Below are positions 20,452 to 64,000 of a stretch of DNA of 64,000 nt, piece by piece. The notes beneath the pieces are model-generated. The model saw only the letters and a list, made by a program, of their open reading frames with translations, searched no databases and was not told where the DNA came from. Origin of the DNA: Candidatus Omnitrophota bacterium. Lineage in GTDB: Bacteria; Omnitrophota; Gorgyraeia; Zapsychrales; JANLHA01. Made by a program: the position numbers and the translations under genes. The stretch lies in assembly GCA_963662715.1 (NCBI GenBank), contig OY759724.1:659136-723135 (forward strand). Direction: 5' to 3'. Numbering within the stretch: the first letter of the stretch is position 1; each line of letters starts with the position of its first letter.

Positions 20452-20476
20452 AACGGCATACGCCTCCCTCAATATT

Positions 20477-20983: not shown

Positions 20984-21166
20984 ATCTCTCCGCGCCTCAT
21001 TTCTTCTGACGGATTTCTCCACCCCCCGGCATCCGGGCCGGGCAGAGAGCCTGTCGGAAATGCTCAAGCAGTACTCTGGCATAAGAGCCCTGTCATGTCA
21101 AATCAAAAATATAAGCCCCATAATTTATTCTCACCGACCTCTGCCTCTTGAATCCCGGGCGTGCCT

Positions 21167-23139: not shown

Positions 23140-23156
23140 GATGTCTCTTTCAGTCC

Positions 23157-24251: not shown

Positions 24252-24268
24252 TGCGTTCTCCGGTGACA

Positions 24269-25493: not shown

Positions 25494-25502
25494 AAACCCG
25501 CT

Positions 25503-26006: not shown

Positions 26007-26008
26007 CT

Positions 26009-26536
26009 CTACTCCTGCTGCCAGTTGACGACATCGTCATCGCTTTCTATCCCGTCAGATCCATAAGAAAAAAGGTCATAACCTTCTGAATTATGAGCAC
26101 CCGGACACTTATAAACATACTCCTGCTTCCAGGGATCCAGCGGGACGACTTTCTTTTTGAGATACGGCCCGCCCCAATCCTGCGGGACCGGCGCTTCTGT
26201 CGGAGCTTCAATTAAAGCTTTTAATCCCTGTTCTGTTGTCGGGAAACGGCCGTTATCAAGCTCATACATATCCAAGGCCACGGATAAATTGGCCTCTATA
26301 TCAGCAACCGCTGCCGCTTGCTGAGCCTGCGATTTTTTCCCGGAAAAATTGGGAACAACCATAGCGGCCAAAACCCCGATAATAACAACTACGAGCAATA
26401 TTTCCACCAGCGTAAATCCCCTGCAGGTCCGGGCAAGGCCCGCGGCCCGGCGGCCCCTCTTATAAAGTTGAAATGCGATTGCCCCACCCCCCTGATCAAC
26501 TCTCTGATACAGCATGAAAATTATTTCTTTCCTCAT
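26009..26536 (-). CDS. gspG: Major pseudopilin GspG
   Basis: RGFTLVEILLVVVIIGVLAAMVVPNF ... ANLSVALDMYELDNGRFPTTEQGLKALIEAP ... DPWKQEYVYKCPG is the classic GspG sequence. Start set at the ATG with an AAGGGGGA RBS (MRKEIIF). The track ORF begins further upstream. Confidence 0.8.
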   Translation of the reverse strand: MRKEIIFMLYQRVDQGGGAIAFQLYKRGRRAAGLARTCRGFTLVEILLVVVIIGVLAAMVVPNFSGKKSQAQQAAAVADIEANLSVALDMYELDNGRFPTTEQGLKALIEAPTEAPVPQDWGGPYLKKKVVPLDPWKQEYVYKCPGAHNSEGYDLFSYGSDGIESDDDVVNWQQE

Positions 26537-26661
26537 AATGTGTCCCCCTTTTTGATATCTTAAAGATCCCGGGAGAACATCTCGTCCCGGGCATATTTCC
26601 TCTCCCGCGGCATTTACAGTCCGGGACAAAGAGCCTCGCGACAAAGCCGCTGTTATTTTTC

Positions 26662-27894: not shown

Positions 27895-27912
27895 AAATAA
27901 CGCCGTTTCCCC

Positions 27913-29622
27913 TTAGAAATTCTTATCATCCTTCGTCACTCGGATAATTTCACTGGCCGTGGTTTGGCCTTTAACAACCTTTTCCCAGCCGTGCTGCAGC
28001 AGCGACACCATACCTTTATCCCTGGCTTTCCTTGCGATCTGGCTGGCTGTGGCCCGGGACAAAATCATTTCGCGAATCTCTTCATTCAGCGAAAGAAACT
28101 CGTAAATACCTTCCCGCCCGCGGTATCCCGTGAAATGACAAGACTCGCATCCGTCCGCCTCGTAAATCGTCTGCGACGTTTCTATGCGGACCGACGCTCC
28201 GAATATCTTGAGCATGTCTTCCGTAACAGAAGCCGGTTTCTTGCATAAAGGACATAACGTGCGGACGAGTCTTTGCGCGATAAAACACTCCACGGAACTG
28301 CAAATCAGATAAGGCTCCACGCCCATGTCCACAAGCCGGGTTATCCCGCTGGCCGCGTCATTCGTGTGCAAAGTCGAGAAGACCAAATGCCCGGTCAGGG
28401 CTATCTGTGTCGCTATTTCGGCGGTTTCCTTGTCCCGGACTTCTCCGACCATCATGATGTCCGGGTCATGGCGCAGCATGGCTCTCAACCCCTGGCTGAA
28501 CGTCAAGTGTATCGCGGGATTAATCTGTATCTGCGTGATGCCCTTCAACTGATATTCAATAGGGTCTTCTATCGTAATGATCTTTTTATCCGGATGGTTG
28601 ACATGCGCGAGGCAGGAATACAATGTCGTGGTTTTCCCGCTGCCGGTCGGCCCCGTAACAAAGATAATCCCGTGGGGTTTTTGGATCAACTGCTCAAGCA
28701 AAGCCTGCTCTCTGGGGGACAACCCCAGATCATTCATATCATAAAGCCGGTTTGAACTGAGGATACGGATCACGACACTTTCGCCGAACTGGGTCGGCAA
28801 AAATGACACACGGAGATCCAGGTTGATTTCCCCGACCTTAACTTTAAACCGCCCGTCTTGGGGCAGTCTTTTCTCCGCGATGTTCAGGTTGGACATGATT
28901 TTGATCCGTGAATTGATGGCTTCCTTAAAATGCCAGATATTCATAGGAACTTTTGTATCATAAAGAATTCCGTCGACCCTGTACCGGACTTTCAAATCTT
29001 TTTCGTAAGGCTCAATATGGATATCCGTCGCACGATCCTTATAGGCCTCCAGCAGGATCTGGTTGATGAACTTCCCGATTGAGGCATCGGAATCGATTTG
29101 TTCGATATCATCAACGCCCTTATCCTGTTCGTGCACCGCCGCAAACGTTCCCTTCATTTGCGCGATCGTCTCGGCTCCGACCCCGTAATACTGCCTGATG
29201 GCCTCCAGGATATCTTGCTCCCGGGCCAAAACGGTTTTTATTTTTGAAGCATGCACCAAATGAACCCCGTCTTGAATATAAATATTGTGGGGCTGGGCGG
29301 TCGCAATGGTCAAAAGATCCTCTTCCGAATCATAATCGACCGGAATGACTTTATAATGAGTCGCAATGGTGACCGGGATTCTCTGCAGAATACTTTTCTC
29401 AATGCGGAGGAGTTTTAAATCAAGAAAATCCACCCCCAGATATTCCGCCAACAGTCGATACATCCTCTTCTCTTCTTTGATAAAACCCAAATTGAACAAG
29501 ACAACCCACAACAGCTCGTGTGTCGCCTGCTGCTTCAGCAAGGCCTCATCCAACTGCTGTTGCTGGATAAAACCCTGTTCAACAAGCAGTGCCCCGAAAT
29601 CTGTTTCTGTGATGATTTTCAT
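27913..29622 (-). CDS. gspE: Type II secretion ATPase GspE
   Basis: An N-terminal N1E-like domain is followed by Walker A VTGPTGSGKTTTLY, Asp-box, Walker B IMMVGEVRD and a tetracysteine motif (CPLCKKP ... CESCHFTGYRGR). An AAGGGA RBS precedes the ATG. Confidence 0.85.
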   Translation of the reverse strand: MKIITETDFGALLVEQGFIQQQQLDEALLKQQATHELLWVVLFNLGFIKEEKRMYRLLAEYLGVDFLDLKLLRIEKSILQRIPVTIATHYKVIPVDYDSEEDLLTIATAQPHNIYIQDGVHLVHASKIKTVLAREQDILEAIRQYYGVGAETIAQMKGTFAAVHEQDKGVDDIEQIDSDASIGKFINQILLEAYKDRATDIHIEPYEKDLKVRYRVDGILYDTKVPMNIWHFKEAINSRIKIMSNLNIAEKRLPQDGRFKVKVGEINLDLRVSFLPTQFGESVVIRILSSNRLYDMNDLGLSPREQALLEQLIQKPHGIIFVTGPTGSGKTTTLYSCLAHVNHPDKKIITIEDPIEYQLKGITQIQINPAIHLTFSQGLRAMLRHDPDIMMVGEVRDKETAEIATQIALTGHLVFSTLHTNDAASGITRLVDMGVEPYLICSSVECFIAQRLVRTLCPLCKKPASVTEDMLKIFGASVRIETSQTIYEADGCESCHFTGYRGREGIYEFLSLNEEIREMILSRATASQIARKARDKGMVSLLQHGWEKVVKGQTTASEIIRVTKDDKNF

Positions 29623-29666
29623 AATCCCTTCTTCATGTTTTCATCCGGCCCGCCTTAATCAGCCCT

Positions 29667-31586
29667 TTAAAAATGCCGGTCCTCCTGAGCCAGAACAATC
29701 GCCAGGTTCTTTTGGGCGCTCTCATAACGAGGATCAATACGCAAAGCTTCCTGGAAATGATAGACAGCATGAACGGTCTCTCCCTGTTTCATATATATAG
29801 CACCGACGCTGTTATGCACCAAAGCGTTATCCGGATGATAAATAAGAATCTCGGAAAAATGCTTGCGGGCCTTTTCCAGAGCCCCTTGCTTCATATATAA
29901 ATCTCCCAAAACACTATGAATATATAAACTGTCCGGTTGACCGGCCAACGCCTGCAGATACATTTCCCGGGCTTGCTCGGGCTTGTTCTGAAGCACATAG
30001 AAGTTCCCCAAATTCTTTAATGTTTCCGGATCACGACTGTCCAGAGCGCGGGCTTTCAGCAAATATTTCTCCGACAGCTCATATTGTCCTTCTTCCATAA
30101 GAAGAACACCGTAATTGCTGTTGGCTTGCGCATACTCAGGATTCAACCGCAGGGCCTGCTCATAAAAAACTTTTGCCCTTTTTAAGTCTCTTTCTTCATA
30201 AAATATATTCCCAAGATTATTATAATTTCGAAAATTTTCCGATTGAAACAACGCGGCATCCAGAAAATGCCTTTTCGCCGGCTCTTTTTTCCCGTCTTTA
30301 AGATAGGCCAATCCCAGGTTATAATGCGCAACCGGATGACGGGGGGCATGCCGCAAAACAAATCCCCATAAAGAATAGCCGTTGTTCCAGACCCGGCTCT
30401 GCTGAAAGGTCCCCAGCGCCATCCCTCCGATGATGAATACCGCGGCGACATTCAAGGATATCCTCTGAATCCTGTGGCTGGCCGTTGCGGAAGCCAGCCT
30501 CTCATACAGAATCCCGCATAGGATACAGAAGCCTAAACAGGGCAAATACATAAACCTGTCCGCCACGGGATTGAGCCCGGAGGAAACGGGATCCGTACGC
30601 AACAGGAAAAAAATCGACACCAGGTAAAACAGGAAAGAAAAATGCAGCCATTTGTTACAGTTTTTAGTGAGTAAAAAAAGGACCAGCAAGGCACATGCCA
30701 GCAAAGATAAAAAGTACGGCACATGGGTCCAGGACACAGGGAGCGGGTAAAAATAAAGCGGGGAGAGATGAACCGGGAGAAAGAATTTGTAAACATAAAA
30801 AACAAACGACCACAGCCATAATAAAATATTTACCGAGACCGGGCTGCCGGGGCTCCCCCCCATATTCAGCCTGTAGGTTATCCACGCTACGGGAACAGCG
30901 TATAACACAAAAGGGATTTTTTCCTTCAAAACTTTCCCGCACAATCTCCTGCCGCGGAACCAATCGCAAACAAGAAGCGCAAGAGGCAGACTCACCGCCA
31001 TAGGCTTGGACAGCATGCCCAGGAATCCGAATAATATAGCAGCATAGTAGGGTCTTCTTTCTCCTGTCCGGATAAAATTCATATACTGCACCAGAGCCAG
31101 CATATAAAAGAACGCGTACAGCACATCTTTCCGGGCGCTCATCCAGGCAACAGGTTCGACGTGTATGGGATGAAGGCCAAAAATCAGGGCAGCTGCACCG
31201 GCAGCCCTGGCGGATGCCCCCAGCTGAAGGGCGAACTTATAGACGAGACAAACCACGCCTATATGAAGCAGCAGATTATCGAGATGATAGACAATCGGAT
31301 TCTCTTGAAAAAAAAGATGTTCCAGGGAGAAAGACAGGATCGTTAACGGGATATATATATCGCAAACTGTACTCTTGAAGATCCGGACAATATTGCCCAG
31401 GCTGAATTGACGGGCCATTTGATTCCATTCAAAATTATTCTGATCATCCCAGACAAAATGCCCCGTTAAAACCGGCCCATAAGCGGCCAGTATCAGCACA
31501 ATCCCTAAAAAAAGCCGTCCCCGGCCGGGAGATAAAAAAGAAATCTTTTTCATAGAAAGACGCATAAAATGAATCGCAATCTGCAT
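29667..31586 (-). CDS. TPR-repeat membrane protein with GT-C-like (PMT/TMTC-like) N-terminal polytopic domain
   Basis: The N-terminal roughly 400 aa contains about 10 TM helices. It has a DD-type motif (HFVWDDQNNF) in the first periplasmic loop, as in GT-C glycosyltransferases of the PMT/ArnT type. The C-terminal roughly 230 aa consists of TPR repeats (NLGNIFYEERDLKRAKVFYEQALRLNPEYAQA...). The start could be ATG 31586 or ATG 31553. Confidence 0.55.
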   Translation of the reverse strand: MQIAIHFMRLSMKKISFLSPGRGRLFLGIVLILAAYGPVLTGHFVWDDQNNFEWNQMARQFSLGNIVRIFKSTVCDIYIPLTILSFSLEHLFFQENPIVYHLDNLLLHIGVVCLVYKFALQLGASARAAGAAALIFGLHPIHVEPVAWMSARKDVLYAFFYMLALVQYMNFIRTGERRPYYAAILFGFLGMLSKPMAVSLPLALLVCDWFRGRRLCGKVLKEKIPFVLYAVPVAWITYRLNMGGSPGSPVSVNILLWLWSFVFYVYKFFLPVHLSPLYFYPLPVSWTHVPYFLSLLACALLVLFLLTKNCNKWLHFSFLFYLVSIFFLLRTDPVSSGLNPVADRFMYLPCLGFCILCGILYERLASATASHRIQRISLNVAAVFIIGGMALGTFQQSRVWNNGYSLWGFVLRHAPRHPVAHYNLGLAYLKDGKKEPAKRHFLDAALFQSENFRNYNNLGNIFYEERDLKRAKVFYEQALRLNPEYAQANSNYGVLLMEEGQYELSEKYLLKARALDSRDPETLKNLGNFYVLQNKPEQAREMYLQALAGQPDSLYIHSVLGDLYMKQGALEKARKHFSEILIYHPDNALVHNSVGAIYMKQGETVHAVYHFQEALRIDPRYESAQKNLAIVLAQEDRHF

Positions 31587-31631
31587 ATGTTTATGACACG
31601 ATAAACCTGTTAATATATCCCTGCCGAACGG

Positions 31632-33203
31632 TTATTTCTCCTGAAGCTCCGGGATGAAAAAGATGATATACTCCGTACGGAGAATAAATCTGTTTTCACT
31701 GCGAAAGATAAAGCCAAAAAGGGGCAAATCGCCCAGGAGGGGAACTTTAGACGTTTTTTCAACTTCTTTTTCTCTCAACAATCCCCCCAGAATAATCACG
31801 TCCGCCCCGTCGATCGGCAGTTCCGCAGAAACCTGCGGCTGAAACGGCTTGTCTGAAGAAGCCTCCAGCGTCGGACGATTATCGGCCAGCCAGTGAAGAT
31901 GCGGACTCAGCCGGACAAGATATTTCTTTTCCGGAAGGGCATTGACCAGAATTTTCATCTTCATGGCAAACCCTTCATCATCCTTAAAATCCCCGGGGAC
32001 ATTCATCGTGTCCCAGCCCCATTCCTTCTCACTATTTAACTGGGAGACCCCGGAAAAATCGTTCAAATCAATAAGCTGGCCCGCGGCATCTAAGGCGTCT
32101 TTTAAGACAGGAAAATCTTCCTTCGTAATTGTGCCCAGGCTCAACCGGTTCTCCTCAGGTGAGCCGTTCTGTTGATCCCCTAAAATATCAAAATTTTTAT
32201 AATCGGAAACAATGGCGTCCCAGTCAATGCCCCCCTGATGTTCCTCATTCAGTTGAATTCTCGAAACCTGGATGCGCCAACGGACTTTAATAAGTTTATC
32301 CAGGTCCTGAATCATTTGCTCAATCTCCGATATTTTCTGCGCCGTATCCGTCACGGTTACGGAATTCGTGTCCCCGTCAAGAACAAGCTGCCCCAGATCT
32401 TCGGTGAGTGTCTTGGAGATCTTCTCCACGACAATGTCCGCCTTAACAAACTGGAATGAAAACACCTTTGTGACCAGGGGCGGGGTATCCCAGGACCGCA
32501 GCAAAGATTGCATTTGCTTCAAGGGTTCTTCGCTGTCCATAAGAATAAGCTGCTGGTTCTTTTCATCAGCGAAAAAATGTCCTTTAAGGCTCTTCAGCTG
32601 CACCAGATTCTTTTTCATGTCATCCACGGAACGGTATTCCAGTTTAATAACTTCAACCTGTGTTTCCGGGGCAAAAGGACGCCCCATCTTCTGTTCATAC
32701 TCTTCCCGGGAAACAACACGAATGACCTGCTCCTCCTGCATATAAGCCAAGTCACTCATCAACGTCACGACGGACAATAAATTCTCAAGGGAAACATCCT
32801 TTAAGCACAAAGTGATAAACCGAGTCGGCAGGACATCAGCTTCAATATTTAAATGGCTCTTTTCTGTCAAAACTTTTATGACATCCGACAAAGGGGTCCG
32901 GGCAAAATCCACTTCGGATATGACCCGATCCCACTCGTCTTCCATTCTCTTATCTTCTTCCGGGGCAGCGGCAGGACTGACAGCGACAGCCCGCTGGACA
33001 TCCAACTCTATGGTAAAAAATTCCTTCGTCTTACCCGGGGAAAGCCCCTCCTGTTCCGGAACAGTTTCGTTCATCGGGACCGGCAACGAATCGTCGGAAG
33101 AAACAATTTCATTTTTAAGCGATGGAATCCGGGCCCCGGATTCTTCCGCATACACTTCAGCCCCTAAAAAAAGGCAAACAAGAAAAAGACAAAAATATCG
33201 CAT
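31632..33203 (-). CDS. Divergent secretin-family outer-membrane protein (second secretin)
   Basis: A signal peptide (MRYFCLFLVCLFLGAEVYA) and N-domain-like segments are followed by a C-terminus alignable to the gspD secretin domain (GGIDWDAIVSDY ... KYLVRLSPHLHWLADNRPTLEAS ... DVIILGGLLREKEVEKTSKVPLLGDLPLFGFIFRS ... EYIIFFIPEL). Compare gspD: GVDWEAIVRDY ... IKLYVTPTIHRD ... TIVIGGLIKD ... VPVLGDVPLVGMAFRNRD ... EIVIFLTPKL. Confidence 0.55.
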   Translation of the reverse strand: MRYFCLFLVCLFLGAEVYAEESGARIPSLKNEIVSSDDSLPVPMNETVPEQEGLSPGKTKEFFTIELDVQRAVAVSPAAAPEEDKRMEDEWDRVISEVDFARTPLSDVIKVLTEKSHLNIEADVLPTRFITLCLKDVSLENLLSVVTLMSDLAYMQEEQVIRVVSREEYEQKMGRPFAPETQVEVIKLEYRSVDDMKKNLVQLKSLKGHFFADEKNQQLILMDSEEPLKQMQSLLRSWDTPPLVTKVFSFQFVKADIVVEKISKTLTEDLGQLVLDGDTNSVTVTDTAQKISEIEQMIQDLDKLIKVRWRIQVSRIQLNEEHQGGIDWDAIVSDYKNFDILGDQQNGSPEENRLSLGTITKEDFPVLKDALDAAGQLIDLNDFSGVSQLNSEKEWGWDTMNVPGDFKDDEGFAMKMKILVNALPEKKYLVRLSPHLHWLADNRPTLEASSDKPFQPQVSAELPIDGADVIILGGLLREKEVEKTSKVPLLGDLPLFGFIFRSENRFILRTEYIIFFIPELQEK

Positions 33204-46700: not shown

Positions 46701-48845
46701 CTATCGGTCCAGGGCCTGCATCGCCGTGGTAAACTCCGAAAAATCCGTTATCGGCTCCCGGCACGTCTCTTGTTGGCAGATATAAACGGCAGGACAAGCC
46801 TGTTTATGTTTTTTAGCGTAAAAAAAGGCTTTCAAAAATTCCTGTTTTTCCGTTTCCCCGGCACAAGGAGGCACCAGGGACACAACAGCATGAGGAGCAA
46901 AGGATTGATTCAGATGATCCAGCATGGCCTGCACCTCGGGGTTCTCTTGCCTCCCGATGAAAATAATTTCCTGCCGCGGGCCCAACAATAAATCACAGGC
47001 AACAAGCAACTGCGGATAAGTCGCCGGCGCTTCCTGGATGACAGAGGAAAAAAACCGGCAGAGCTTTTCGGCCTTGGCATACCATTCGGTTTGACCGGTA
47101 AATTGAGAAAGCCGGATCAGGTCCCAAGCGGCTAACGCATTGCCGGAAGGAAGAGCTCCCGAGTAAATATATTTCTGCCTGTCGATGATTTGCGGATCGT
47201 CCTGACCTGTCAGGAAAAAACCTCCCTCGGAAGGATCCTCAAAGAGTTCGATCATGCTCTCTGTCAGCATGTGCGCCTTCTGCAGATATTCCACTTTAAA
47301 TGTGGCCTGATAAAGTTCAATGAGACCATAAATAAAAAAAGCATAATCGTCTAACATGCCCAGTACGGCCGCCTCTTGATCCCGGTACCGGTGAAAAAGC
47401 CGTCCGTCATCCCGGACGAGGTTTTTGAGCAGGAAATCAGCCGTCTGTTCGGCGCTTCGGGCATATTGAGGTTTGTTAAGAACTCTCGCCCCTAACGAAA
47501 GCGCGGCCATCATAAGCCCGTTCCAATCGGCCAAGATCTTGTCGTCCCGGTGCGGACGGGGCCTCTGAGCCTGTGCCCCCCGGAGTCTCTTCCGTGCAAG
47601 ACAAAGGCATTCTTCAATCTCCTCGGGCCTCTTTCGAAAATGACGGGCTGTCTGCAGCAAGTCCTGCTCTATCATCAGAATGTTCTTCTGTGGAAACGCG
47701 CCTTTAGGACCGCTGCGGATGTTCCCTGATGTTTTTATCCCGTAATAATAGGCAAAAATCTCTTTTTCTTCCTTGGAAAGGCAGGAATCTATCTCATGAA
47801 CATCCCATAAATAATAGGCCCCTTCTTCTAACACATCCACAGGTGGAGAAGCAGAGGCGTCCCTGCGGGGCAAACTGTCGGCATCTTCCGCGGAATAAAA
47901 CCCGCCCCCTTCATCATGTAAATTCCCCAATACATATTCTATGGTTTCTTCGGCCACCCGCTTATAATCCATCTGCCCGGTGACCTGATAAGTTTCCAGA
48001 TAAGCGACGGTCAACAGGGCCTGGTCGCACAGCATCTTTTCAAAATGCGGCAGCTGCCAGAATTGATCCACGGAATACCGGTGAAACCCGCCCCGCAGAT
48101 GATCCCGGATGCCTCCCCGGCTCAAAGCCTGGAGCGTCCTGTTAACCATGAATAAAGCTTCCTGGTTACGGGAGCGGCTCCAATACCTCAACAGAAAGGA
48201 AAGGCTGTGCGGCTGGGGGAATTTCGGCCGGATACCAAACCCCCCGTTTTTTCTGTCAAAATGACTCTCCATGGACTGAAAAACTTTCTGAAGCAAAGAG
48301 GCTTCCACCGGGGAAGGCTCCGGGGAGGGCCGTGCCTCTTTCAGCAAGGCCATAATTTTATCGGCTGTCTGGTCGACCTTCCCTCTTTCCTTCTCCCACA
48401 CCTCTTTTACGGATAACAGGACCTCTTTAAATCCGGGACGTCCGCCCTGCCGGTCCAAAGCGAAATAGGTCCCCGCAAAAAAAGGACGGCCGTCAGGTGT
48501 CAGGAAAAGATTCATCGGCCACCCCCCGTTTCCGGCAAGAAGCATGACGGCCTGCATATAGTAATTATCGATGTCCGGACGCTCCTCCCGATCAAGCTTG
48601 ACAGGAATAAAATGCTGGTTAAGAATCCGGGCCACGTCCACGTCCTGAAAAGACTCCCTCGCCATAACATGACACCAATGGCACGTTGAATAGCCGATCG
48701 ATAAAAAAACCGGCCTGCTTTCCGCCTGAGCCTTACGGAAAGCTTCTTCTCCCCAAGGATACCAATCAACCGGGGTCCCGGCGTGCTGTTGCAAATAAGG
48801 GCTTTTTTCTCCGCCCAGACGGTTGCGGCGGACATTCTCTTCCAT
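46701..48845 (-). CDS. Thioredoxin-domain protein of the YyaL/DUF255 family (thioredoxin-like + six-hairpin glycosidase-like fold)
   Basis: [52 protein letters not shown] is the DUF255 thioredoxin-like N-terminus. The long alpha/alpha-toroid-like remainder is about 715 aa. Start set at the ATG (MEENVRR). Confidence 0.7.
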
Positions 48846-49000
48846 AATGTTCCTCTTGCTCTGCGGGAGGGACAGGGAAGCCAACAATCTTATACAAAGA
48901 GGTGCCGGCCTTCTGCCGCACGATCATAAACATATCGATAAATAACAAACGGCAGAGAAAATCTTCTATCCCTGCCGTCAACGTCCCAACCGGATAATGA

Positions 49001-56143: not shown

Positions 56144-57550
56144 TTACAATAATTCCTGCTGTGGGCCGGCTGAATCTTGCTGCGGACGCGCCATAAAAAT
56201 CAGGGCCAAGACGGCCAAAGGGAAAAAATGCAGAATCAGGCGGGAAAGCGTCGTATCTCTCTGCTCAATCCAGATATAAGCGTTTGTGCAAAGAAACAGA
56301 AGAAACAGAATAACAAAAAACAAGGTCATGCAAAGGCAAAACCATTTGAAAAAAGGATGAATTTTTGAGCGGAACGAAAAAAACGAGCTGAAAACAAGCA
56401 AACTCCATATGACGTTCCAATTCCCGCTCCAGAATAATTCCTGAATAAGCTTGCTGAAAATAAACGGAATCCGGGCCAAATTCTGCCGACCGAGTTCATA
56501 AACAACCCCGACAGACATGCCTTGTCTCATAAATTTAAACAACGGGAAGAGCAGAGATATCCCCAAACACGGGAAAATAAAGTTTAAAGCCGTTTTCATG
56601 CGACGGCCGGACAAAGATTTGTCCGAAAACAGCAGGCCAACGAATAAAGCTCCGTAAACCAAAAGATAGGCCATGCCCTCCCGTTTTGTAAATGTGGATA
56701 TCCCGGCGAATACCCCGGCGAGGACCAAAAACCGGGTCTCTTTCTCCGCATACCACAAGAAAATCATCATAAGGGTGACACAGTTATAAACCATCAGAGT
56801 AAAATCCATATATCCTAATGAAGCATGCAGGGCAAAAAGATTGGATGTAAACAACAAGCCGACACTCCACAAAGCCCGTCTGCTGTTTAAAAAGTAATTC
56901 ACAAATTCATAGTGAATCACAATATAAGAGAGAAGATAAAAAGGGATAAAAACTTTAACAATCTGGTCACTCCAATAACCTAAATTCAAAACCATCCATG
57001 TCTGCAAGAGAGAGACATGCAGAGGATACCCCCGGTACAGAATATCCTGCGGTAAAACAATATTTTTGTTAAAGAAAAAAACTTTGGCATTAAGAGTGTT
57101 AATTTTCAAGGGGTCAAATCCATAAACGGGAATATGAAAGGCGCGCCAGAAAATATAAACACACTGAAAAACCACAAAAAGGATAATAATGATGTCTAAG
57201 AATTCCCAATAAATCTCATAAGGAGATGGTCGGGATAACTCTTTCCGCACCAAATCCTCATTAACAGCACCTTGCTGTCCCTGCCCAGACCGTTTCTTAG
57301 AAACACTCCTTATGATTCCTATAAAAATCAAGCCAAGCAAGAAAAGATGAAGCCCCTGCCCGGCAAACGAACCTCCCAGCATATTCCAGGATAACATTAC
57401 AATCGTCAAAATCCCGGTGCCCAGAATAAACGAGAGGGATATCTTAGCGGGGACCGTCAGCTCCTCCCTGGGAAAAAGAAAAGACAAAGAAACAGACCCT
57501 ATAAGCCAGGGGATAAAAAGAGCAATACCTATCGCAAAGCCCGGGATCAT
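56144..57550 (-). CDS. Hypothetical polytopic membrane protein
   Basis: 468 aa with at least 11 hydrophobic segments. The start ATG overlaps the upstream gene stop (ATGA). Confidence 0.4.
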   Translation of the reverse strand: MIPGFAIGIALFIPWLIGSVSLSFLFPREELTVPAKISLSFILGTGILTIVMLSWNMLGGSFAGQGLHLFLLGLIFIGIIRSVSKKRSGQGQQGAVNEDLVRKELSRPSPYEIYWEFLDIIIILFVVFQCVYIFWRAFHIPVYGFDPLKINTLNAKVFFFNKNIVLPQDILYRGYPLHVSLLQTWMVLNLGYWSDQIVKVFIPFYLLSYIVIHYEFVNYFLNSRRALWSVGLLFTSNLFALHASLGYMDFTLMVYNCVTLMMIFLWYAEKETRFLVLAGVFAGISTFTKREGMAYLLVYGALFVGLLFSDKSLSGRRMKTALNFIFPCLGISLLFPLFKFMRQGMSVGVVYELGRQNLARIPFIFSKLIQELFWSGNWNVIWSLLVFSSFFSFRSKIHPFFKWFCLCMTLFFVILFLLFLCTNAYIWIEQRDTTLSRLILHFFPLAVLALIFMARPQQDSAGPQQELL

Positions 57551-58290
57551 CGCCGCCCTCCCTGTCTTACAGCCATGAGACTCTTGTGATCATAAGGAGA
57601 AAACCAGTGAAATCCGGGAGGCAGAGCCTTAAAAGGCTCATCTTTCATAAACATAATGAGAACGTCAGGGTCACTGATATCGGGTTTTAAAATATCGATA
57701 GGGTAAAGGAAATACGCAAGTTCTGTTTTCCAGAACAACCCCAGGCCCTTCTCAAGATACAAATCACTTAAAAGACGTGCCCGGGCATACCCTGATATGT
57801 GTTGATGACAGTAGCGGGAAAATCCATAGGTTTGTTTATAAATTTGGGCATATTTATTCTGAACATCTTCGCCTTTGAAATGCTGATATTCAAAGGCGAA
57901 TTGTCTAAGCTGAAATTTCACCTGGAAAAATGTTAATATAAAAAGCATAATCCAGGCCCCTGTCTTGAGTGTCTTTAATCCCTTTCGGAGAAAAAAGCGG
58001 GGGGAATTGTCTGCATGACGCCTGTTTCTGTAAGCCAGCCAGAGGGAAGAAAAAAAGATCAAAGCATACCCATACCACAAAATATTCAACGGGCCAATCT
58101 GACGATAGAGACAACGGTTGGGCGTCATGGCATAAAAAGTATCAATGAAGGAAACCATGGGAGAAGACGTATGCCAGGTAAAAGGAAAAAAAACAACAAA
58201 CAAAACAAACAACACAATTCCGACTCCCAGCTTGATTGTGCGGGGTAACGTTTTCTGATCTTCTTCTTTATTATGGAAAGCAGCTGCCAT
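57547..58290 (-). CDS. Hypothetical membrane protein
   Basis: 247 aa with several TM helices. It is co-transcribed (4-nt overlap) with 56144..57550. Confidence 0.4.
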   Translation of the reverse strand: MAAAFHNKEEDQKTLPRTIKLGVGIVLFVLFVVFFPFTWHTSSPMVSFIDTFYAMTPNRCLYRQIGPLNILWYGYALIFFSSLWLAYRNRRHADNSPRFFLRKGLKTLKTGAWIMLFILTFFQVKFQLRQFAFEYQHFKGEDVQNKYAQIYKQTYGFSRYCHQHISGYARARLLSDLYLEKGLGLFWKTELAYFLYPIDILKPDISDPDVLIMFMKDEPFKALPPGFHWFSPYDHKSLMAVRQGGRR

Positions 58291-58788
58291 TGATACGGCC
58301 TTTAAAATTTAAAAATTTTCGAGATCATTATCAACCACCCATATCTTTTAGGCTAATTCACCTTAAAGGAAAAAACCTTAAAGTAAAATAAACAACTTCT
58401 ATGATATTCATTTTAAAACGTTCTTACCAGTAAAATTAATACTATTTAGGAAGCCGCTTGAGAAATACATTCTTAAAGTGTTTAGGGCATCGGGGCCTAA
58501 TTAATTTTTAAAGGAACTTCCAAGTATTTCACCTCTTAATATATTTATATGATATGTTTAACATATTGTTGATGTTAAAAATAATAGACACACATCCATG
58601 CATACCTGTCCAGGACTGTCCTAGACTGAGCAAAAGAGGCAAGAACAGAAAAACACGAATTATGAACAAATATTTCACAAAACAATAAATTTACTCCATT
58701 AATTAATATTTGGTACATTTCTTGCTTGTAATTAATACGTTAACTTCGCATCACAGCAAAAATATATATCAATTTAGGAGGTTTTTCA

Positions 58789-59577
58789 ATGAAACAGTCA
58801 CTTAGAAACATCAGCATCATCTTTTTAGCGGTTATAGGAGTTGTGGCTCTGACCAGCAGCCCGGCTTCAGCACAAGCTGCCGCAACAATTCCAGTTGACC
58901 TGGAATTGAGTTTGGTTATTGACATTTCCGGAAGTGTCAGCGCTTCTGAATATGCAACACAAATCCAGGGTTATGGAAATGCTTTTAAAAGCGCTGCTGT
59001 TATCAATGCCCTTGATAACGGACAATACGAACAAATCGCCGTTAATGTCGTATTCTACAGCGGTAGCGCCGCGGAAGTTGTGGAATGGACTCTCGTTGAC
59101 CAATCCAACTCCTCTGCTTTTGGGGACACGCTTATTGCTTTAGCCGACCCAAACAATCTGGGCAGCTTGACCGGTGTGGCCAATGCCATTGATACAGCCG
59201 ACAATCTGTTTTTCACCAATATCTACGAAGGTGACAGACTTGTTATGGATGTTTCCGGTGACGGAATTGAAAACGTAGACAGCGTAGCAGACGTTTTAAG
59301 TGCACGCGATATCGCCCTGGCCTTGGGAATTGATGCCATCAACGGTCTTGTTATTGATGATGAAACCGGTGTCGTGGATTTTTATGCTGACAACGTCGTT
59401 GGAGGAGACGGGGCTTTCTTACTCGTTGTTGATTCTTTTGATGATTTGCAGCCGGCTATCATTGAAAAACTCGCCAGAGAAATCGGCGATGATCCTGTTG
59501 TCCCTGAACCAGCCACTCTTTCCCTGTTAGGCTTTGGCTTAATGGGATTAGCTGGTTTCAGAAAAAAGAGAAGCTAA
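58789..59577 (+). CDS. von Willebrand factor A-domain protein carrying a PEP-CTERM sorting signal
   Basis: A signal peptide is followed by the vWA MIDAS motif DLELSLVIDISGSVS and the TADN / DGIENVDS motifs. The C-terminus VPEPATLSLLGFGLMGLAGFRKKRS has the PEP motif, a hydrophobic helix and a basic tail, which together define PEP-CTERM. Strong TAGGAGG RBS. Confidence 0.75.
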   Translation: MKQSLRNISIIFLAVIGVVALTSSPASAQAAATIPVDLELSLVIDISGSVSASEYATQIQGYGNAFKSAAVINALDNGQYEQIAVNVVFYSGSAAEVVEWTLVDQSNSSAFGDTLIALADPNNLGSLTGVANAIDTADNLFFTNIYEGDRLVMDVSGDGIENVDSVADVLSARDIALALGIDAINGLVIDDETGVVDFYADNVVGGDGAFLLVVDSFDDLQPAIIEKLAREIGDDPVVPEPATLSLLGFGLMGLAGFRKKRS

Positions 59578-59893
59578 TATAATTATATATATTTATGAAA
59601 CTCCACGGCCTCACGGCCGTGGTTTCTTAACTATTTTGACTGTGCAAACGCAGCTAAAATTCTATCTGCGTTTGTCCTCGGTCTTCCCGGCCTTGATATT
59701 CGATGTATCGCTTTATCGATTCTTCGTCGGCTCCAACCGTTGACACAAAATACCCTGCTGACCATATCCTGAGTTATCCCGCCATAAATACAATAAACAG
59801 CATATCGCACAAACCCATGGGAACAAAATATCGCAGGGAAAGCATTCACAGCAAGGCAGGATGACGACAAGGCATGATTCACTGCACGGGATT

Positions 59894-62800
59894 TTATTCT
59901 GACACACAATCATAACACTGAATAGCAGATTGGCCATCCTGTCCCGAATAGGTAAACAAAATAATACTTGTTTTTAGACACTGCTCTGTTTCCTCACAAG
60001 AAGAACAGTCAACATACAAGCCCTCTCCCACACAACGCTTATCTCCTTTTTCAAACCTGCATTCGAAGCAAGCTTCTCCGCTGGACAATGTCTTGGCAAA
60101 AGTGCAGTTAGGACAATTTTTGCACTCTTTCTCCGTTAAATAACCTATCGAACTGCAGGTTTCCTTCTTTTTCTGACATATATAACATTGTTCTCCTTGT
60201 TTAGTCCTTTTTGTCCCTTCACATTCCTTTTTCGAATCGGATTTGCAGGCAAGACATTCTTGCTCCGTTAACAGACCGAGATCCGAACAAAGCTGTGGTT
60301 TCTCCTCGCAGCTGTAACACTGCCGGCCTTCTTTGGTCTTCTGATCTTTCTTACACTGATTCTTAGGATCCTCTTCACACAGAGAACATTCCTCTTCAGA
60401 AATTAAACCAAGATCGATACATTCTTCCGGTTTATCCATACAGCCGTAACATTGTTTCCCTTCCCTGGTCCTCTGATCTTCGACACATTCCTTCTTCGGG
60501 TCTTTGGTGCAAATCGCGCACTCTTCTTCAGCCAGCAATCCAAGGTCGACGCATGCTTCCGGCTTGTCCATACAGCTGTAGCATTGCCGGCCTTCTTTAG
60601 TTTTCTGATCCTCGACACATTCTTTCTTCGGGTCTTTGGTGCAAATCGCGCACTCTTCTTCAGCCAGCAATCCAAGGTCGACGCATTCTTCCGGTTTGTC
60701 CATACAGCTGTAGCATTGCCGGCCTTCTTTAGTCCTCTGGTCTTCGACACATTCCTTCTTCGGATCTTCGACACATACCGCGCATTCCTCCTGTGACAGC
60801 AGACCTAAATCTTCGCACTCTTCCGGCTTATCCATACAGCTGTAGCATTGCCGGCCTTCTTTAGTCTTCTGGTCTTCGACACATTCCTTCTTCGGATCTT
60901 CGACACATACCGCGCATTCCTCCTGTGACAGCAGACCTAAATCTTCGCATTCTTCCGGCTTGTCCACACAACCGTAACATTGTTTCCCTTCCCTGGTCTT
61001 TTGATCCTCGACACATTCCTTCTTCGGGTCTTCGGCACATACCGCGCATTCCTCCTGTGACAGCAGACCTAAGTCTTCGCATTCTTCCGGCTTGTCCATA
61101 CAGCTGTAGCATTGCCGGCCTTCTTTAGTCTTCTGGTCTTCGACACATTCCTTCTTCGGATCTTCGACACATACCGCGCATTCCTCCTGTGACAGCAGAC
61201 CTAAATCGACGCATTCTTCCGGCTTGTCCACACAACCGTAACATTGTTTCCCTTCCCTGGTCTTTTGATCCTCGACACATTCCTTCTTCGGGTCTTTGGT
61301 GCAAATCGCGCACTCTTCTTCAGCCAGCAATCCAAGGTCGACGCATTCTTCCGGCTTGTCCATACAGCTGTAGCATTGCCGGCCTTCTTTAGTCCTCTGG
61401 TCTTCGACACATTCCTTCTTCGGATCTTCGACACATACCGCGCATTCCTCCTGTGACAGCAGGCCTAAATCTTCGCATTCTTCCGGCTTGTCCACACAAC
61501 CGTAACATTGTTTCCCTTCCCTGGTCTTTTGATCCTCGACACATTCCTTCTTCGGGTCTTCGGCACATACCGCGCATTCCTCCTGCGACAGCAGGCCTAA
61601 ATCTTCGCACTCTTCCGGCTTATCCATACAGCTGTAGCATTGCCGGCCTTCTTTAGTCTTCTGGTCTTCGACACATTCCTTCTTCGGATCTTCGACACAT
61701 ACCGCGCATTCCTCCTGTGACAGCAGACCTAAATCTTCGCATTCTTCCGGCTTGTCCACACAACCGTAACATTGTTTCCCTTCCCTGGTCTTTTGATCCT
61801 CGACACATTCCTTCTTCGGGTCTTCGGCACATACCGCGCATTCCTCCTGTGACAGCAGACCTAAATCTTCGCATTCTTCCGGCTTGTCCATACAGCTGTA
61901 GCATTGCCGGCCTTCTTTAGTCCTCTGGTCTTCGACACATTCCTTCTTCGGATCTTCGACACATACCGCGCATTCCTCCTGTGACAGCAGACCTAAATCG
62001 ACGCATTCTTCCGGCTTGTCCACACAACCGTAACATTGTTTCCCTTCCCTGGTCTTTTGATCCTCGACACATTCCTTCTTCGGGTCTTTGGTGCAAATCG
62101 CGCACTCTTCTTCAGCCAGCAATCCAAGGTCGACGCATTCTTCCGGTTTGTCCATACAGCTGTAGCATTGCCGGCCTTCTTTAGTCCTCTGGTCTTCGAC
62201 ACATTCCTTCTTCGGGTCTTTGGTGCAAATCGCGCACTCTTCTTCAGCCAGCAATCCAAGGTCGACGCATTCTTCCGGTTTGTCCATACAGCTGTAGCAT
62301 TGCCGGCCTTCTTTAGTCCTCTGGTCTTCGACACATTCCTTCTTCGGATCTTCGACACATACCGCGCATTCCTCCTGTGACAGCAGACCTAAATCTTCGC
62401 ATTCTTCCGGCTTGTCCACACAACCGTAACATTGTTTCCCTTCCCTGGTCTTTTGATCCTCGACACATTCCTTCTTCGGGTCTTCGGCACATACCGCGCA
62501 TTCCTCCTGCGACAGCAGGCCTAAATCTTCGCACTCTTCCGGCTTATCCATACAGCTGTAGCATTGCCGGCCTTCTTTAGTTTTCTGATCCTCGACACAT
62601 TCCTTCTTCGGATCTTCGACACATACCGCGCATTCCTCCTGCGACAGCAGACCTAAATCTTCGCATTCTTCCGGTTTATCCATACAGCTGTAGCATTGCC
62701 GGCCTTCCCTGGTCTTCTGATCTTCGACACATTCCTTCCTCGGGTCTTCGACACATACCGCGCATTCCTCCTGTGACAGCAGACCTAAGTCTTCGCATGC

Positions 62801-64000
62801 TTCCGGCTTGTCCATACAGCTGTAGCATTGCCGGCCTTCTTTGGTCTTCTGATCTTCGACACATTCTTTCTTCGGGTCTTCGACACATACCGCGCATTCC
62901 TCCTGTGACAGCAGACCTAAATCTTCGCATGCTTCCGGCTTATCCACACAGCTGTAGCATTGCCGGCCTTCTTTGGTCTTCTGATCTTCGACACATTCTT
63001 TCTTCGGGTCTTCGACACAAATCGCGCACTCTTCTTCAGCCAGCAATCCAAGGTCGACGCATGCTTCCGGTTTATCCACACAGCTGTAGCATTGCCGGCC
63101 TTCTTTAGTCTTCTGATCTTCGATACATTCCTTCTTCGGGTCTTCGACACATACCGCGCATTCCTCCTGTGACAGCAGACCTAAATCTTCGCATGCTTCC
63201 GGCTTATCCACACAGCTGTAGCATTGCCGGCCTTCTTTGGTCTTCTGATCTTCGACACATTCTTTCTTCGGGTCTTCGACACATACCGCGCATTCCTCCT
63301 GTGACAGCAGACCTAAATCTTCGCATGCTTCCGGTTTATCCACACAGCTGTAGCATTGCCGGCCTTCTTTAGTCTTCTGATCTTCGATACATTCCTTCTT
63401 CGGGTCTTCGACACATACCGCGCATTCCTCCTGCGACAGCAGGCCTAAATCAATACATTCTTCCGATTTATCCATACAGTTGTAGCATTGCCGGCCTTCC
63501 TTGGTCTTCTGATCCTCGACACATTCCTTCTTCGGGTCTTTGACACATACCGCGCATTCCTCCTGTGACAGCAGACCTAAATCGACGCATTCTTCCGGTT
63601 TATCCATACAGCTGTAGCATTGCCGGCCTTCTTTAGTTTTCTGATCCTCGACACATTCTTTCTTCGGGTCTTCAGCACATACCGCGCATTCCTCCTGTGA
63701 CAGCAGGCCTAAATCTTCGCATGCTTCCGGTTTGTCCATACAGCTGTAGCATTGCCGGCCTTCTTTGGTCTTCTGATCTTCGACACATTCTTTCTTCGGG
63801 TCTTCAGCACATACCGCGCATTCCTCCTGTGACAGCAGGCCTAAATCTTCGCATGCTTCCGGCTTGTCCATACAGCTGTAGCATTGCTGACCTTCTCTGG
63901 TCTTTTGATCTTCGACACATTCCTTCTTCGGGTCTTCGACACATACCGCGCATTCCTCCTGCGACAGCAGGCCTAAATCAATACATTCTTCCGGCTTGTC
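59894..64000 (-). CDS. Giant acidic cysteine-rich tandem-repeat protein, 3' portion (5' end beyond window)
   Basis: An open minus-strand frame runs from the window edge to the stop at 59894. The body is about 30 copies of a 44-aa unit CYSCMDKPEECEDLGLLSQEECAVCVEDPKKECVEDQKTKEGRQ with six Cys per unit in two CxxC pairs. The final roughly 180 aa are degenerate repeats ending ...QCYDCVSE. The track start at 63871 is only an internal Met, because identical repeats continue to 64000. Confidence 0.7.
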   Translation of the reverse strand, partial: DKPEECIDLGLLSQEECAVCVEDPKKECVEDQKTREGQQCYSCMDKPEACEDLGLLSQEECAVCAEDPKKECVEDQKTKEGRQCYSCMDKPEACEDLGLLSQEECAVCAEDPKKECVEDQKTKEGRQCYSCMDKPEECVDLGLLSQEECAVCVKDPKKECVEDQKTKEGRQCYNCMDKSEECIDLGLLSQEECAVCVEDPKKECIEDQKTKEGRQCYSCVDKPEACEDLGLLSQEECAVCVEDPKKECVEDQKTKEGRQCYSCVDKPEACEDLGLLSQEECAVCVEDPKKECIEDQKTKEGRQCYSCVDKPEACVDLGLLAEEECAICVEDPKKECVEDQKTKEGRQCYSCVDKPEACEDLGLLSQEECAVCVEDPKKECVEDQKTKEGRQCYSCMDKPEACEDLGLLSQEECAVCVEDPRKECVEDQKTREGRQCYSCMDKPEECEDLGLLSQEECAVCVEDPKKECVEDQKTKEGRQCYSCMDKPEECEDLGLLSQEECAVCAEDPKKECVEDQKTREGKQCYGCVDKPEECEDLGLLSQEECAVCVEDPKKECVEDQRTKEGRQCYSCMDKPEECVDLGLLAEEECAICTKDPKKECVEDQRTKEGRQCYSCMDKPEECVDLGLLAEEECAICTKDPKKECVEDQKTREGKQCYGCVDKPEECVDLGLLSQEECAVCVEDPKKECVEDQRTKEGRQCYSCMDKPEECEDLGLLSQEECAVCAEDPKKECVEDQKTREGKQCYGCVDKPEECEDLGLLSQEECAVCVEDPKKECVEDQKTKEGRQCYSCMDKPEECEDLGLLSQEECAVCAEDPKKECVEDQKTREGKQCYGCVDKPEECEDLGLLSQEECAVCVEDPKKECVEDQRTKEGRQCYSCMDKPEECVDLGLLAEEECAICTKDPKKECVEDQKTREGKQCYGCVDKPEECVDLGLLSQEECAVCVEDPKKECVEDQKTKEGRQCYSCMDKPEECEDLGLLSQEECAVCAEDPKKECVEDQKTREGKQCYGCVDKPEECEDLGLLSQEECAVCVEDPKKECVEDQKTKEGRQCYSCMDKPEECEDLGLLSQEECAVCVEDPKKECVEDQRTKEGRQCYSCMDKPEECVDLGLLAEEECAICTKDPKKECVEDQKTKEGRQCYSCMDKPEACVDLGLLAEEECAICTKDPKKECVEDQRTREGKQCYGCMDKPEECIDLGLISEEECSLCEEDPKNQCKKDQKTKEGRQCYSCEEKPQLCSDLGLLTEQECLACKSDSKKECEGTKRTKQGEQCYICQKKKETCSSIGYLTEKECKNCPNCTFAKTLSSGEACFECRFEKGDKRCVGEGLYVDCSSCEETEQCLKTSIILFTYSGQDGQSAIQCYDCVSE
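60400..64000 (-). repeat. Near-identical 132-bp in-frame tandem repeat array with higher-order periodicity of about 792 bp
   Basis: The DNA motif ccggcttgtccatacagctgtagcattgccggccttctttagtcttctggtcttcgacacattccttcttcgg... recurs every 132 bp. Sets of six units recur at 792-bp spacing (antisense track ORFs 60861/61653 and 61125/61917 are offset by exactly 792). Confidence 0.8.

Follow-up and report, generated by a model that had tools for sequence, protein, structure and literature searches.

The ORF and its repeat array

The window, that is, the whole stretch of 64,000 nucleotides that was analysed, ends inside an ORF on its minus strand (Table 1). On the minus strand, 59894-64000 translates into 1368 codons followed by a stop, and the frame runs on past the window edge, in agreement with the original prediction of a real, large ORF that is cut by the window. 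The ATG at 63871 in the ORF listing was rejected as the start because it encodes residue 44 of a unit, a Met. As had been stated, the ORF is convergent to a gene for a PEP-CTERM protein, at 58789-59577, whose product carries DUF1194 and PEP-CTERM. Profile searches of Pfam and NCBIfam matched no sorting-signal family at the C-terminus of the array protein, as had been claimed. The acidic background that was noted earlier is also real, the net charge of the window product being -176 and its composition being 18.3% Glu, 13.6% Cys, 11.2% Lys, and 8.6% Asp. It has 186 Cys (31 x 6), no His, and no Trp.

Table 1. Features of the array ORF, in window coordinates
Feature	Coordinates	Strand	Details
3' part of one ORF, 1368 codons	59894..64000	-	Stop at 59894-59896; start codon and N-terminus beyond 64000
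27 near-identical 132-nt/44-aa units	60437..64000	-	Residues 1-1188; consensus DKPEECEDLGLLSQEECAVCVEDPKKECVEDQKTKEGRQCYSCM; Tandem Repeats Finder, unit table
Recent segmental duplication within the array	60833..62548	-	Identity matrix
Two diverged units, 28 and 29	60173..60436	-	Residues 1189-1276; canonical Cys spacing kept
Penultimate tail module	60059..60172	-	Residues 1277-1314; six Cys, spacing 11, 3, 3, 12, 3
C-terminal cap module	59897..60058	-	Residues 1315-1368; six Cys, spacing 9, 3, 6, 21, 3

Tandem Repeats Finder reported, over 60420-64000, a period of 132 nt with 27.1 copies, 87% matches, and 0% indels. When the protein was cut every 44 aa, 27 near-identical units were followed by two diverged units, and together with the two divergent C-terminal modules there are 31 modules where about 30 had been predicted, the unit copy number being that of the source assembly only (a 3.36-Mb contig). 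The Cys residues are at positions 6, 17, 20, 28, 40, and 43 of the unit, and the predicted pattern CxxC-x6-C-x10-CxxC-x7-C-x11 is exact in the units cut in this way. The 22-aa half-unit symmetry was also judged to be correct; the two-fold duplication inside the module is of a CxxC-x6/7-C half-unit. Nucleotide identity among the 27 near-identical units is 71-100% and several subtypes are present in the identity matrix, in which units 19-24 (60833-61624) are 99-100% copies of units 12, 13, and 15-18 (within 61625-62548). Units 28 and 29 are about 65-76% and about 52-58% identical, respectively, to the other units at the nucleotide level and have the same fold in the AlphaFold2 (AF2) model. The tail modules also have the fold of the units (AF2, pLDDT 85). 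The penultimate one is modelled as a short helix and a hairpin and has a conserved counterpart in relatives (ALGLLS..EC.YKC..C..), while no other non-canonical part of the family is as conserved as the C-terminal cap, which has the motif ..DCSSCEE.E.C....IILF......QCYDC and 12 invariant columns in its alignment.

Relatives, coding nature and export

The module family, which comprises L001, L003-L031, and P0005-P0020, is rare: there are 33 matches among 1.84 billion representative proteins, and 22 of 29 metagenome loci have strict units. The Cys spacing is exactly 11, 3, 8, 12, 3 in 235 of 319 family modules. L001, from an Omnitrophota MAG and the only relative with a known taxon, has 2252 aa and about 47-48 diverged modules with the same Cys spacing. 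In its 45 strict units, whose mean identity is 41%, none of the six Cys varies, T34 and G37 exceed 90% conservation, position 41 is always aromatic, and the acidic positions D1, D8, D23, and E27 are conserved. The window ORF is 45-47% identical to L001 across >1100 aa (BLASTP) and has the family signature, namely, the spacing 11, 3, 8, 12, 3 with D8-[LI]-G-L-L, T34, G37, and an aromatic residue at 41, as well as the family cap ..DC..C....C....ILF......CY.C. P0015 has 4 modules, L009, L026, and L031 have 17 each, L001 has about 48, and the window protein has 31 or more. The visible part of the window protein, 1368 aa, does not establish the 'giant' size that had been claimed for it, and relatives with complete ORFs are 364-2252 aa long. 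In a sister family the module makes up the N-terminal region of secreted S8 subtilases, which have signal peptides. The units of L001 and L009 are rich in Gln, Asn, and Lys, and their acidity is weaker than in the window protein. Gene neighbourhoods of family members are not conserved.

Among the units, 17, 10, and 37 columns vary at codon positions 1, 2, and 3, respectively, and 3194 codon differences are synonymous and 2276 non-synonymous. Because of this third-position bias and synonymous excess, and because the same module with the same Cys spacing recurs in other organisms, diverged to about 41% identity, the array is a coding sequence under purifying selection and not a chance repeat. 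Near-identical 132-nt units are hard to assemble, contig L002 of the independent short-read assembly Logan SRR34447553 stops at the array, breaking where the near-identical units start, and in P0007, which comes from a different sample, three identical units are followed by a terminal frameshift, all of which would suit a mis-assembled or non-coding tandem repeat. However, there are 0% indels across the 27 copies, the variation is biased to the third codon position, the family is conserved and has complete ORFs, and the source contig is megabases long; a cytoplasmic giant protein with zinc ribbons is likewise at odds with the signal peptides found in all relatives with a known N-terminus. We consider it extremely unlikely that the array is explained by either of these. 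The same Logan contig is 100% identical over 56268-60509, and the 3' end of the ORF (59894-60509 at 100%) is therefore corroborated.

Since the window protein starts beyond 64000, its export was deduced from the relatives only. A hydrophobic N-terminal signal segment is present in 26 of 26 relatives with a known N-terminus, and 10 of 13 members of the close family have a lipobox like that of PROSITE PS51257 (signal peptide ending [LIVMFWSTAG](2)-[LIVMFYSTAGCQ]-[AGS]-C). The N-termini of the relatives have no consistent twin-arginine motif and for this reason export is presumed to be by Sec. Without the signal or lipobox Cys, the mature proteins have exactly 6n Cys (288, 102, 102, 102, and 24). 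It is probable that the window protein too is exported and that it carries a lipid anchor. Export of the relatives, most of which have a lipid anchor, makes a disulfide-stapled surface stalk the most likely reading of this protein, rather than an intracellular chain of zinc sites.

The module, its predicted fold and its cysteines

The original prediction did not recognise the module as any described domain, and this was borne out because profile searches of Pfam and NCBIfam gave no match to it and sequence and fold searches of the PDB gave no convincing relative. No Pfam repeat family of known disulfide-rich repeats (EGF, TNFR, LDL-A, TSP, Myxococcus Cys-rich repeat, and others) was matched in searches that covered seven family members and the window ORF in Pfam and the window ORF in NCBIfam. 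None of the Pfam zinc families (Zn_clus, RING, zinc ribbon, and rubredoxin among them) was matched even at E <= 10, and PF00172 gave no match at E <= 10 on three units, which cover every register. No curated profile or solved structure of a zinc ribbon or rubredoxin and no known Ca-binding motif or family matched the module. The PDB profile search returned only the MDM2 RING (E = 5e-4 to 9e-2; the match of profile A1 is weak at 5e-4), with C17, C20, C40, and C43 aligned on Zn site 1 and the P-K...KT.xG hairpin also matched. Judged from these comparisons, the 44-residue six-Cys module is a previously undescribed domain.

AF2 modelled four units with a pLDDT of 90.9 as helix 6-9, helix 14-20, and hairpin 26-33/39-45, repeated identically. 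Because C17xxC20 lies inside helix 14-20 and C40xxC43 inside the continuous strand 39-45, neither CxxC is a zinc knuckle in this model, contrary to what had been proposed for them. Of the two chemistries that were originally offered, disulfide-rich mini-domains in an exported protein is the one we favour over Cys4 zinc-ribbon or rubredoxin-like sites, given the signal segments and lipoboxes of the relatives, the position of the CxxC pairs in helix and strand, the variable C2-C3 spacing, and the four-Cys variants. The C2-C3 spacing ranges in relatives from CxxC to Cx6C (2 to 6 residues) and C5-C6 is always CxxC. A zinc ribbon or rubredoxin-like Cys4 site was rejected because the CxxC pairs are not in converging hairpin turns and no profile or structure matched, and an MDM2-type RING because its eight cross-brace ligands are not all present, only the site-1 positions being aligned.

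Four-Cys modules are rare and in them C28 is lost together with a helix Cys. Those of P0006, P0012, and P0016 are without C17 and C28, with the DP motif still aligned, and that of P0001 is without C28 and one helix Cys. The six invariant Cys would form three intradomain disulfides. The likeliest partner of C28 is a helix Cys, probably C17, which would leave C6 and C20 to pair with C40 and C43; this pairing is proposed from variant modules that are few and come from distant relatives (25-35% identity). Joint loss of C17 and C28 also fits one C17-C28 disulfide together with a metal site of C6/C20/C40/C43. The Omnitrophota lineage is often anaerobic, which was counted against disulfides.

A proposed surface stalk and its alternatives

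Based on these findings we propose, with reasonable though not strong confidence, that the ORF codes for a rod of mini-domains stapled by disulfides, that this rod is exported and probably lipid-anchored, and that its length varies by unit gain and loss. Its location is most likely the cell envelope or surface, the window ORF being the C-terminal part. As in full-length relatives, it would begin with a Sec-type signal peptide with a lipobox Cys and a short Pro/Lys/Gln-rich linker, followed by a long head-to-tail string of one mini-domain and a cap made of two divergent copies of the same fold. Each mini-domain would have a short helix (C6), a second helix (C17, C20), and a beta-hairpin with C28 on strand 1, C40 and C43 on strand 2, and the conserved T34..G37 as the turn. 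Since the inter-domain linker is only six residues, the string should be a stiff, highly acidic beads-on-a-string rod, and 31 modules at an assumed 2-3 nm each would make it tens of nanometres long. As the cap would be at the end opposite a lipid anchor, it would be kept clear of the membrane by the rod, which would act as a spacer, stalk, or adhesin; both this shape and this role are proposed from the architecture. The unit number probably changes over evolution as 132-nt units are gained or lost in frame, and the six-unit duplication in the window copy would be a recent instance of this.

It is unlikely, in our estimate, that the protein is instead an exported chain of metal-thiolate sites that bind Zn or another soft metal through four or six Cys per module and either buffer or store metal in the envelope or form a rod that metal stiffens. 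The ligands could be C17/C20/C40/C43, C6/C20/C40/C43 with one disulfide, or a binuclear Zn2Cys6-type cluster. Each unit does have two invariant CxxC pairs, the only PDB profile match is a RING with Zn site 1 and the hairpin aligned, the pattern CX2CX6CX10CX2CX7C read from C40 fits the Gal4 Zn2Cys6 consensus (CX2CX6CX5-12CX2CX6-8C), the lineage may lack oxidative folding, and Giardia VSPs, extracellular CXXC-rich proteins reported to bind Zn, are a precedent. However, both CxxC pairs are in helix or strand in the AF2 model, where strand residues i and i+3 face opposite sides, and no Pfam zinc family was matched at E <= 10. The module lacks the second-site RING ligands, since the protein has no His and D31 and E36, which align there, are conserved at only 33-38%; the variable C2-C3 spacing and the four-Cys variants are also unfavourable. 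That the module is a new extracytoplasmic metal-thiolate domain with a Zn(Cys)4 or binuclear M2Cys6-type centre in each 44-aa unit is quite improbable; in that case an uncultured, possibly host-dependent lineage would have a lipid-anchored rod with 30-50 metal sites at regular intervals outside the cytoplasm, either to store or buffer metal in the envelope or as a rigid fibre that depends on metal. We also give very little credence to a polyanionic cation-binding or matrix protein in which the disulfide-stapled modules are only a scaffold and the dense carboxylate surface is the working part and would bind, at the envelope, Ca2+, Mg2+, Fe, or surfaces of mineral or polysaccharide. Asp and Glu make up 27% of the window protein, the net charge is strongly negative, D1, D8, D23, and E27 are kept even in the diverged L001 units, and calcium-binding EGF arrays offer an analogy, but no Ca-binding motif or family matched, several relatives are less acidic (L001 and L009 units), and no mineralisation or transport genes are linked to the array gene.

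What is new in the proposed stalk is a compact, confidently predicted 44-residue fold, without a Pfam or NCBIfam model or a detectable PDB relative, that rare uncultured bacteria would use for lipid-anchored arrays with 4 to about 48 modules and that is also found in secreted subtilases. Bacterial counterparts of eukaryotic EGF-type rods of small disulfide-rich domains are uncommon. If cells that are very small and possibly epibiotic bear an acidic stalk tens of nanometres long, it would be a candidate structure for contact between cells, and the family is a test case for oxidative folding in the envelope of such lineages and for in-frame repeat expansion that tunes surface-protein length. In practical terms it yields a new domain model and a small expressible fragment for deciding between disulfide and metal.

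EGF-like and cbEGF arrays (fibrillin) and TNFR Cys-rich domains resemble the array in that modules of ~40 aa with six invariant Cys follow one another head-to-tail, with very short linkers, and make up long extracellular rods; many are acidic, and copy number differs between relatives. However, there is no sequence, profile, or fold match, the Cys spacing is different, and those domains are all-beta whereas our module is predicted to be helix-helix-hairpin in what would be a bacterial, lipid-anchored protein. The Omnitrophota tandem-repeat scaffolds, from the taxon of the closest labelled homologue, are likewise long repetitive envelope or surface proteins. Their repeats are TSP3, NHL, WD, HEAT, or lectin repeats (West-Roberts 2023, 10.1101/2023.11.21.568195; 10.64898/2026.06.07.730766), and both papers class proteins by Pfam repeats and never mention the cysteine module. 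Those giants have many thousands of residues, and what is visible of the window protein, like its complete relatives, is far below that size; unlike most Omnitrophota repeats, the array shows recent nucleotide-level expansion and its module has no Pfam model.

The module spacing CxxC-x19-CxxC is identical to that of C438/C441...C461/C464 in the MDM2-type RING (C2H2C4), and the stretch P-K...C...KT.G...C[YF].C is shared (profile E = 5e-4). It differs from this RING in that it has no second zinc site, its AF2 secondary structure is different, it has no Pfam RING match, and the protein would be extracytoplasmic; nor should a helix follow its last CxxC, since there is a Pro four residues later. 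The Gal4-type Zn2Cys6 cluster (PF00172) fits in a shifted register, C40-x2-C43-x6-C6'-x10-C17'-x2-C20'-x7-C28', and has the same internal two-fold half-unit duplication, but the module is acidic and not basic, the Pro after each CxxC blocks the Gal4 helices, PF00172 did not match, the predicted fold differs, and the protein is bacterial and probably exported. Giardia VSPs and other CXXC-rich coats share ~12-14% Cys, many CXXC, exposure with a membrane anchor, and the question of metal or disulfide. There is no homology, and VSPs are not strictly periodic and have a C-terminal TM anchor, whereas the array protein has an exact 44-aa period and probably an N-terminal lipid anchor. With the CSab motif of defensins and scorpion toxins the module shares, in its predicted fold, a two-Cys helix stapled to a Cys-bearing beta-hairpin.

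The repeat array of the window gene

The window ORF lies on the minus strand at 59894-64000. Translation gave 1368 codons and a stop codon, and the frame is open up to the window edge, as in the original prediction of a large repeat ORF running off the window; that the protein is giant, as it was also called, is unproven. The ATG listed at 63871 is merely Met 44 of a repeat unit. When the ORF was cut every 44 residues the cysteines fell at unit positions 6, 17, 20, 28, 40, and 43, which matches the predicted cysteine pattern exactly, and Tandem Repeats Finder resolved the array into 27.1 copies of a 132-nt period, at 87% matches and zero indels. The visible protein has neither His nor Trp; its Cys number 186 (31 x 6), and its 368 acidic versus 192 basic residues give a net charge of -176.

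Comparison among the units showed that codon positions 1, 2, and 3 carry 17, 10, and 37 variable nucleotide columns, respectively, and that synonymous codon differences outnumber non-synonymous ones. Because of this third-position bias and synonymous excess, the frame is coding and under purifying selection. The ORFs of 60-123 aa found on both strands in other frames of the array (window 60403-63372), such as those beginning MSKIRRRNVSK and MTADLNLRILPACP, were rejected as genes and are periodic by-products of the repeat.

The gene has undergone a recent internal duplication of about 0.8 kb (window 60833-62548). Units 12, 13, and 15-18 recur as units 19-24 with 99-100% nucleotide identity, and unit 14 is found in just one copy of the duplicated block. 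The 3' end of the gene is corroborated by an independent Logan short-read contig, L002 (SRR34447553), which is 100% identical to window 56268-60509 and breaks off at the first near-identical units. Since this contig ends there, short reads fail to resolve the array and its copy number rests on the 3.36-Mb contig of the source assembly.

Features of the window, of the 44-residue unit, and of related loci
Feature	Location	Strand	Remark
27 near-identical 44-residue units	window ORF		consensus DKPEECEDLGLLSQEECAVCVEDPKKECVEDQKTKEGRQCYSCM
Two diverged units	window ORF, after the 27 units		Cys spacing unchanged
Two more six-Cys modules	window ORF, C-terminal tail		Cys spacing altered
Helix	unit 6-9		AlphaFold2
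Bridge	unit, residue 12		AlphaFold2
Helix	unit 14-20		AlphaFold2; carries C17 and C20
Strand	unit 26-33		AlphaFold2; carries C28
Turn	unit 34-38		AlphaFold2; carries T34 and G37
Strand	unit 39-45		AlphaFold2; carries C40 and C43
DUF1194 (vWA-like) protein with PEP-CTERM anchor	window 58789-59577	+	convergent neighbour
Overlapping hydrophobic ORFs, 468 and 247 aa	window 56144-57550, 57547-58290	minus	
728-aa thioredoxin-like DUF255/DsbH-family protein	window 46701-48887	minus	11 kb from the window gene
Type II secretion/type IV pilus-like cluster	window 18670-33203	minus	27-40 kb from the window gene
NHL-repeat beta-propeller gene	L001 2133-4295; L007 1243-2526; L032 3911-6004	that of the Cys-module lipoprotein gene	
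P0006 (sister family)	L033 6001-13317		

A rare family with two architectures

No credible Pfam-A or NCBIfam match at E <= 10 was found for the window ORF, its tail, or a three-unit fragment, the sole profile match being to Polo_box_3, which was under its cut-off and without an accepted stretch. The repeat regions of seven family members were likewise without any family match, and full-text literature searches found no description of the module. Thus, the module, which the original prediction had not recognised as any described domain, is a new domain family, and its kind is a familiar one, the repetitive exported surface protein.

A scan of the GTDB species representatives yielded one relative, L001, in a Candidatus Omnitrophota MAG. 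It is a complete ORF of 2252 aa that is 45-47% identical to the window ORF across more than 1100 residues by BLASTP, and its Cys-Cys distances cycle through 11, 3, 8, 12, 3, and 7 with nearly no exceptions. Its 45 strict units have a mutual identity of just 41%, with the six Cys invariant, T34 and G37 conserved in more than 90%, position 41 occupied by Y or F in every unit, and the D8-[LI]-G-L-L motif conserved. Metagenome and viral contigs were scanned for degenerate DNA encoding G.QC[YF].C.[DE]KP..C. The metagenomes gave 29 matching contigs, of which 22 have strict units and four have complete open frames for proteins of 813-819 aa; the viral contigs gave none. An exhaustive HMMER search gave 33 matches at E <= 1e-3 among 1.84 billion representative proteins. 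The family is therefore real but rare, and the canonical spacing is exact in 235 of the 319 modules of all members. A word-indexed homology search, in a collection without the metagenome family proteins, found P0001 alone when the window ORF was the query and gave no match with the 44-aa unit profile or the L001 protein. The closest database fragment, P0007 (167 aa, 72% identity), is from another sample; its three identical units run into a tail that is out of frame, a sign of a similar recent expansion, or of an assembly break, in a second organism.

Two architectures were found. The window ORF is a member of the close family, in which a signal peptide, in most cases with a lipobox, is followed by a linker rich in Pro, Lys, and Gln, then by a number of canonical modules, and finally by a conserved C-terminal module pair ending in ..DC..C....C....ILF......CY.C. 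The total number of modules is 4 in P0015 (364 aa), 17 in L009, L026, and L031, about 48 in L001, and at least 31 in the window ORF. The sister family, at 25-35% identity, comprises secreted proteins of 1300-2400 aa (P0001, P0005, P0006, P0012, P0019, P0023, P0024, and P0034). Their signal peptide precedes 20-40 heterogeneous six-Cys modules, after which come a hydrophobic segment (such as VTYVIIIIETPHGRFVL), a linker, and an S8 subtilase at the C-terminus. A weak match, P0021 (524 aa), is unrelated; its repeat is a 22-aa unit with two Cys, PAVCEDTTANNQGEPLPCTYDP, present in about 12 identical copies, and its C-terminus consists of a hydrophobic segment and then a basic tail, RKRLGL.

Predicted fold and the state of the cysteines

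AlphaFold2 was run on four window units with an alignment of window and P0001 segments. The mean pLDDT was 90.9 and the secondary structure was identical in each unit, while the pTM was 0.51 and therefore the orientation from unit to unit is uncertain. The last 180 residues were modelled at a pLDDT of 85.4. Both tail modules are predicted to be divergent copies of the unit fold, and since they share it, the whole visible protein would be a single domain type repeated 31 times.

The original prediction read the CxxC pairs as zinc-ribbon knuckles or, if the protein is exported, the array as disulfide-rich mini-domains. The latter is the favoured reading and the zinc ribbon is disfavoured, because the relatives are exported, neither CxxC makes a knuckle in the AlphaFold2 model, and the zinc families are without a match. 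We consider it moderately likely that the module Cys form disulfides. C40 and C43 should face opposite sides of the modelled hairpin strand since they are three apart within it. Among the relatives linked to subtilases, the gap between the second and third Cys ranges from 2 to 6 residues, and the fifth and sixth Cys always form CxxC. In the rare four-Cys modules C28 and one helix Cys are absent in every case; in those of P0006, P0012, and P0016 it is C17 and C28 that are missing, with the DP motif still aligned. This joint loss suggests a C17-C28 cystine, and it is also compatible with a metal site made of C6, C20, C40, and C43. In the disulfide model, C6 and C20 are predicted to bond with C40 and C43.

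That the modules bind metal is unlikely, but it would make the finding of much greater interest. Each module has two invariant CxxC pairs, and a weak match to the MDM2 RING puts C17, C20, C40, and C43 on zinc site 1 with the hairpin matched too; however, the second-site ligands are absent from the module and its predicted secondary structure is unlike that of a RING. Similarly, the Cys spacing starting at C40 fits the Gal4 Zn2Cys6 consensus, but the predicted secondary structure is again different and neither PF00172 nor any other zinc family in Pfam-A gave a match. A Pro after each CxxC also argues against these resemblances.

Export, proposed role and gene surroundings

All 26 known N-termini of the relatives have a strongly hydrophobic segment, and 10 of the 13 from the close family have a PS51257-type lipobox, such as SVIGC, GLSGC, AVTGC, and FVVGC. 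These N-termini show no consistent twin-arginine motif, suggesting that the chains are exported unfolded by Sec. Complete mature proteins hold exactly 6n Cys once the signal and lipobox Cys are subtracted. The N-terminus of the window protein falls outside the window; by analogy with its relatives, the protein is probably exported as well.

We propose that the array is a structural stalk or spacer, and possibly an adhesin. It would be held by the N-terminal lipid anchor, with its domains separated by six-residue linkers, and would push the distal conserved cap away from the membrane. If each module is taken to measure 2-3 nm, the reach would be tens of nanometres. The stalk length would evolve by in-frame gain and loss of units. 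This proposal is based on the lipid anchor, the linkers, the distal cap, the variable module number, and the reuse of the module on secreted proteases. With its strong negative charge the protein may also bind cations or surfaces, a reading that we regard as a minor alternative to the stalk.

A conserved gene neighbourhood was looked for across the family and not found, the upstream genes (ABC transporter, response regulator, DUF924, and others) varying between loci. The only gene to recur is one for an NHL beta-propeller, directly upstream in three independent loci, L001, L007, and L032, where the NHL genes are 46-53% identical and overlap the Cys-module lipoprotein gene or lie within 33 nt of it. 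For the window gene, this side is beyond the window. Apart from housekeeping genes, its visible surroundings hold only the convergent DUF1194/PEP-CTERM gene and two genes for probable membrane proteins that could not be annotated. The 316-nt gap of the convergent pair has a GC-rich hairpin and then a T-run at 59603-59622. These two genes, the ORFs of 468 and 247 aa, have hydrophobic products without a Pfam match and lie past the vWA-like gene, about 1.6-3.8 kb away from where the window gene ends (3'). Farther away is the DUF255/DsbH-family protein; no member of the DsbA, DsbB, or VKOR families was detected among the scanned window ORFs of at least 180 aa. The type II secretion/type IV pilus-like cluster has two secretins, PilM/N, a GspK-like protein, a GspG pseudopilin, GspF, a GspE ATPase, and a TPR protein; type II secretion systems are able to bring lipoproteins to the cell surface, as in the case of PulA.
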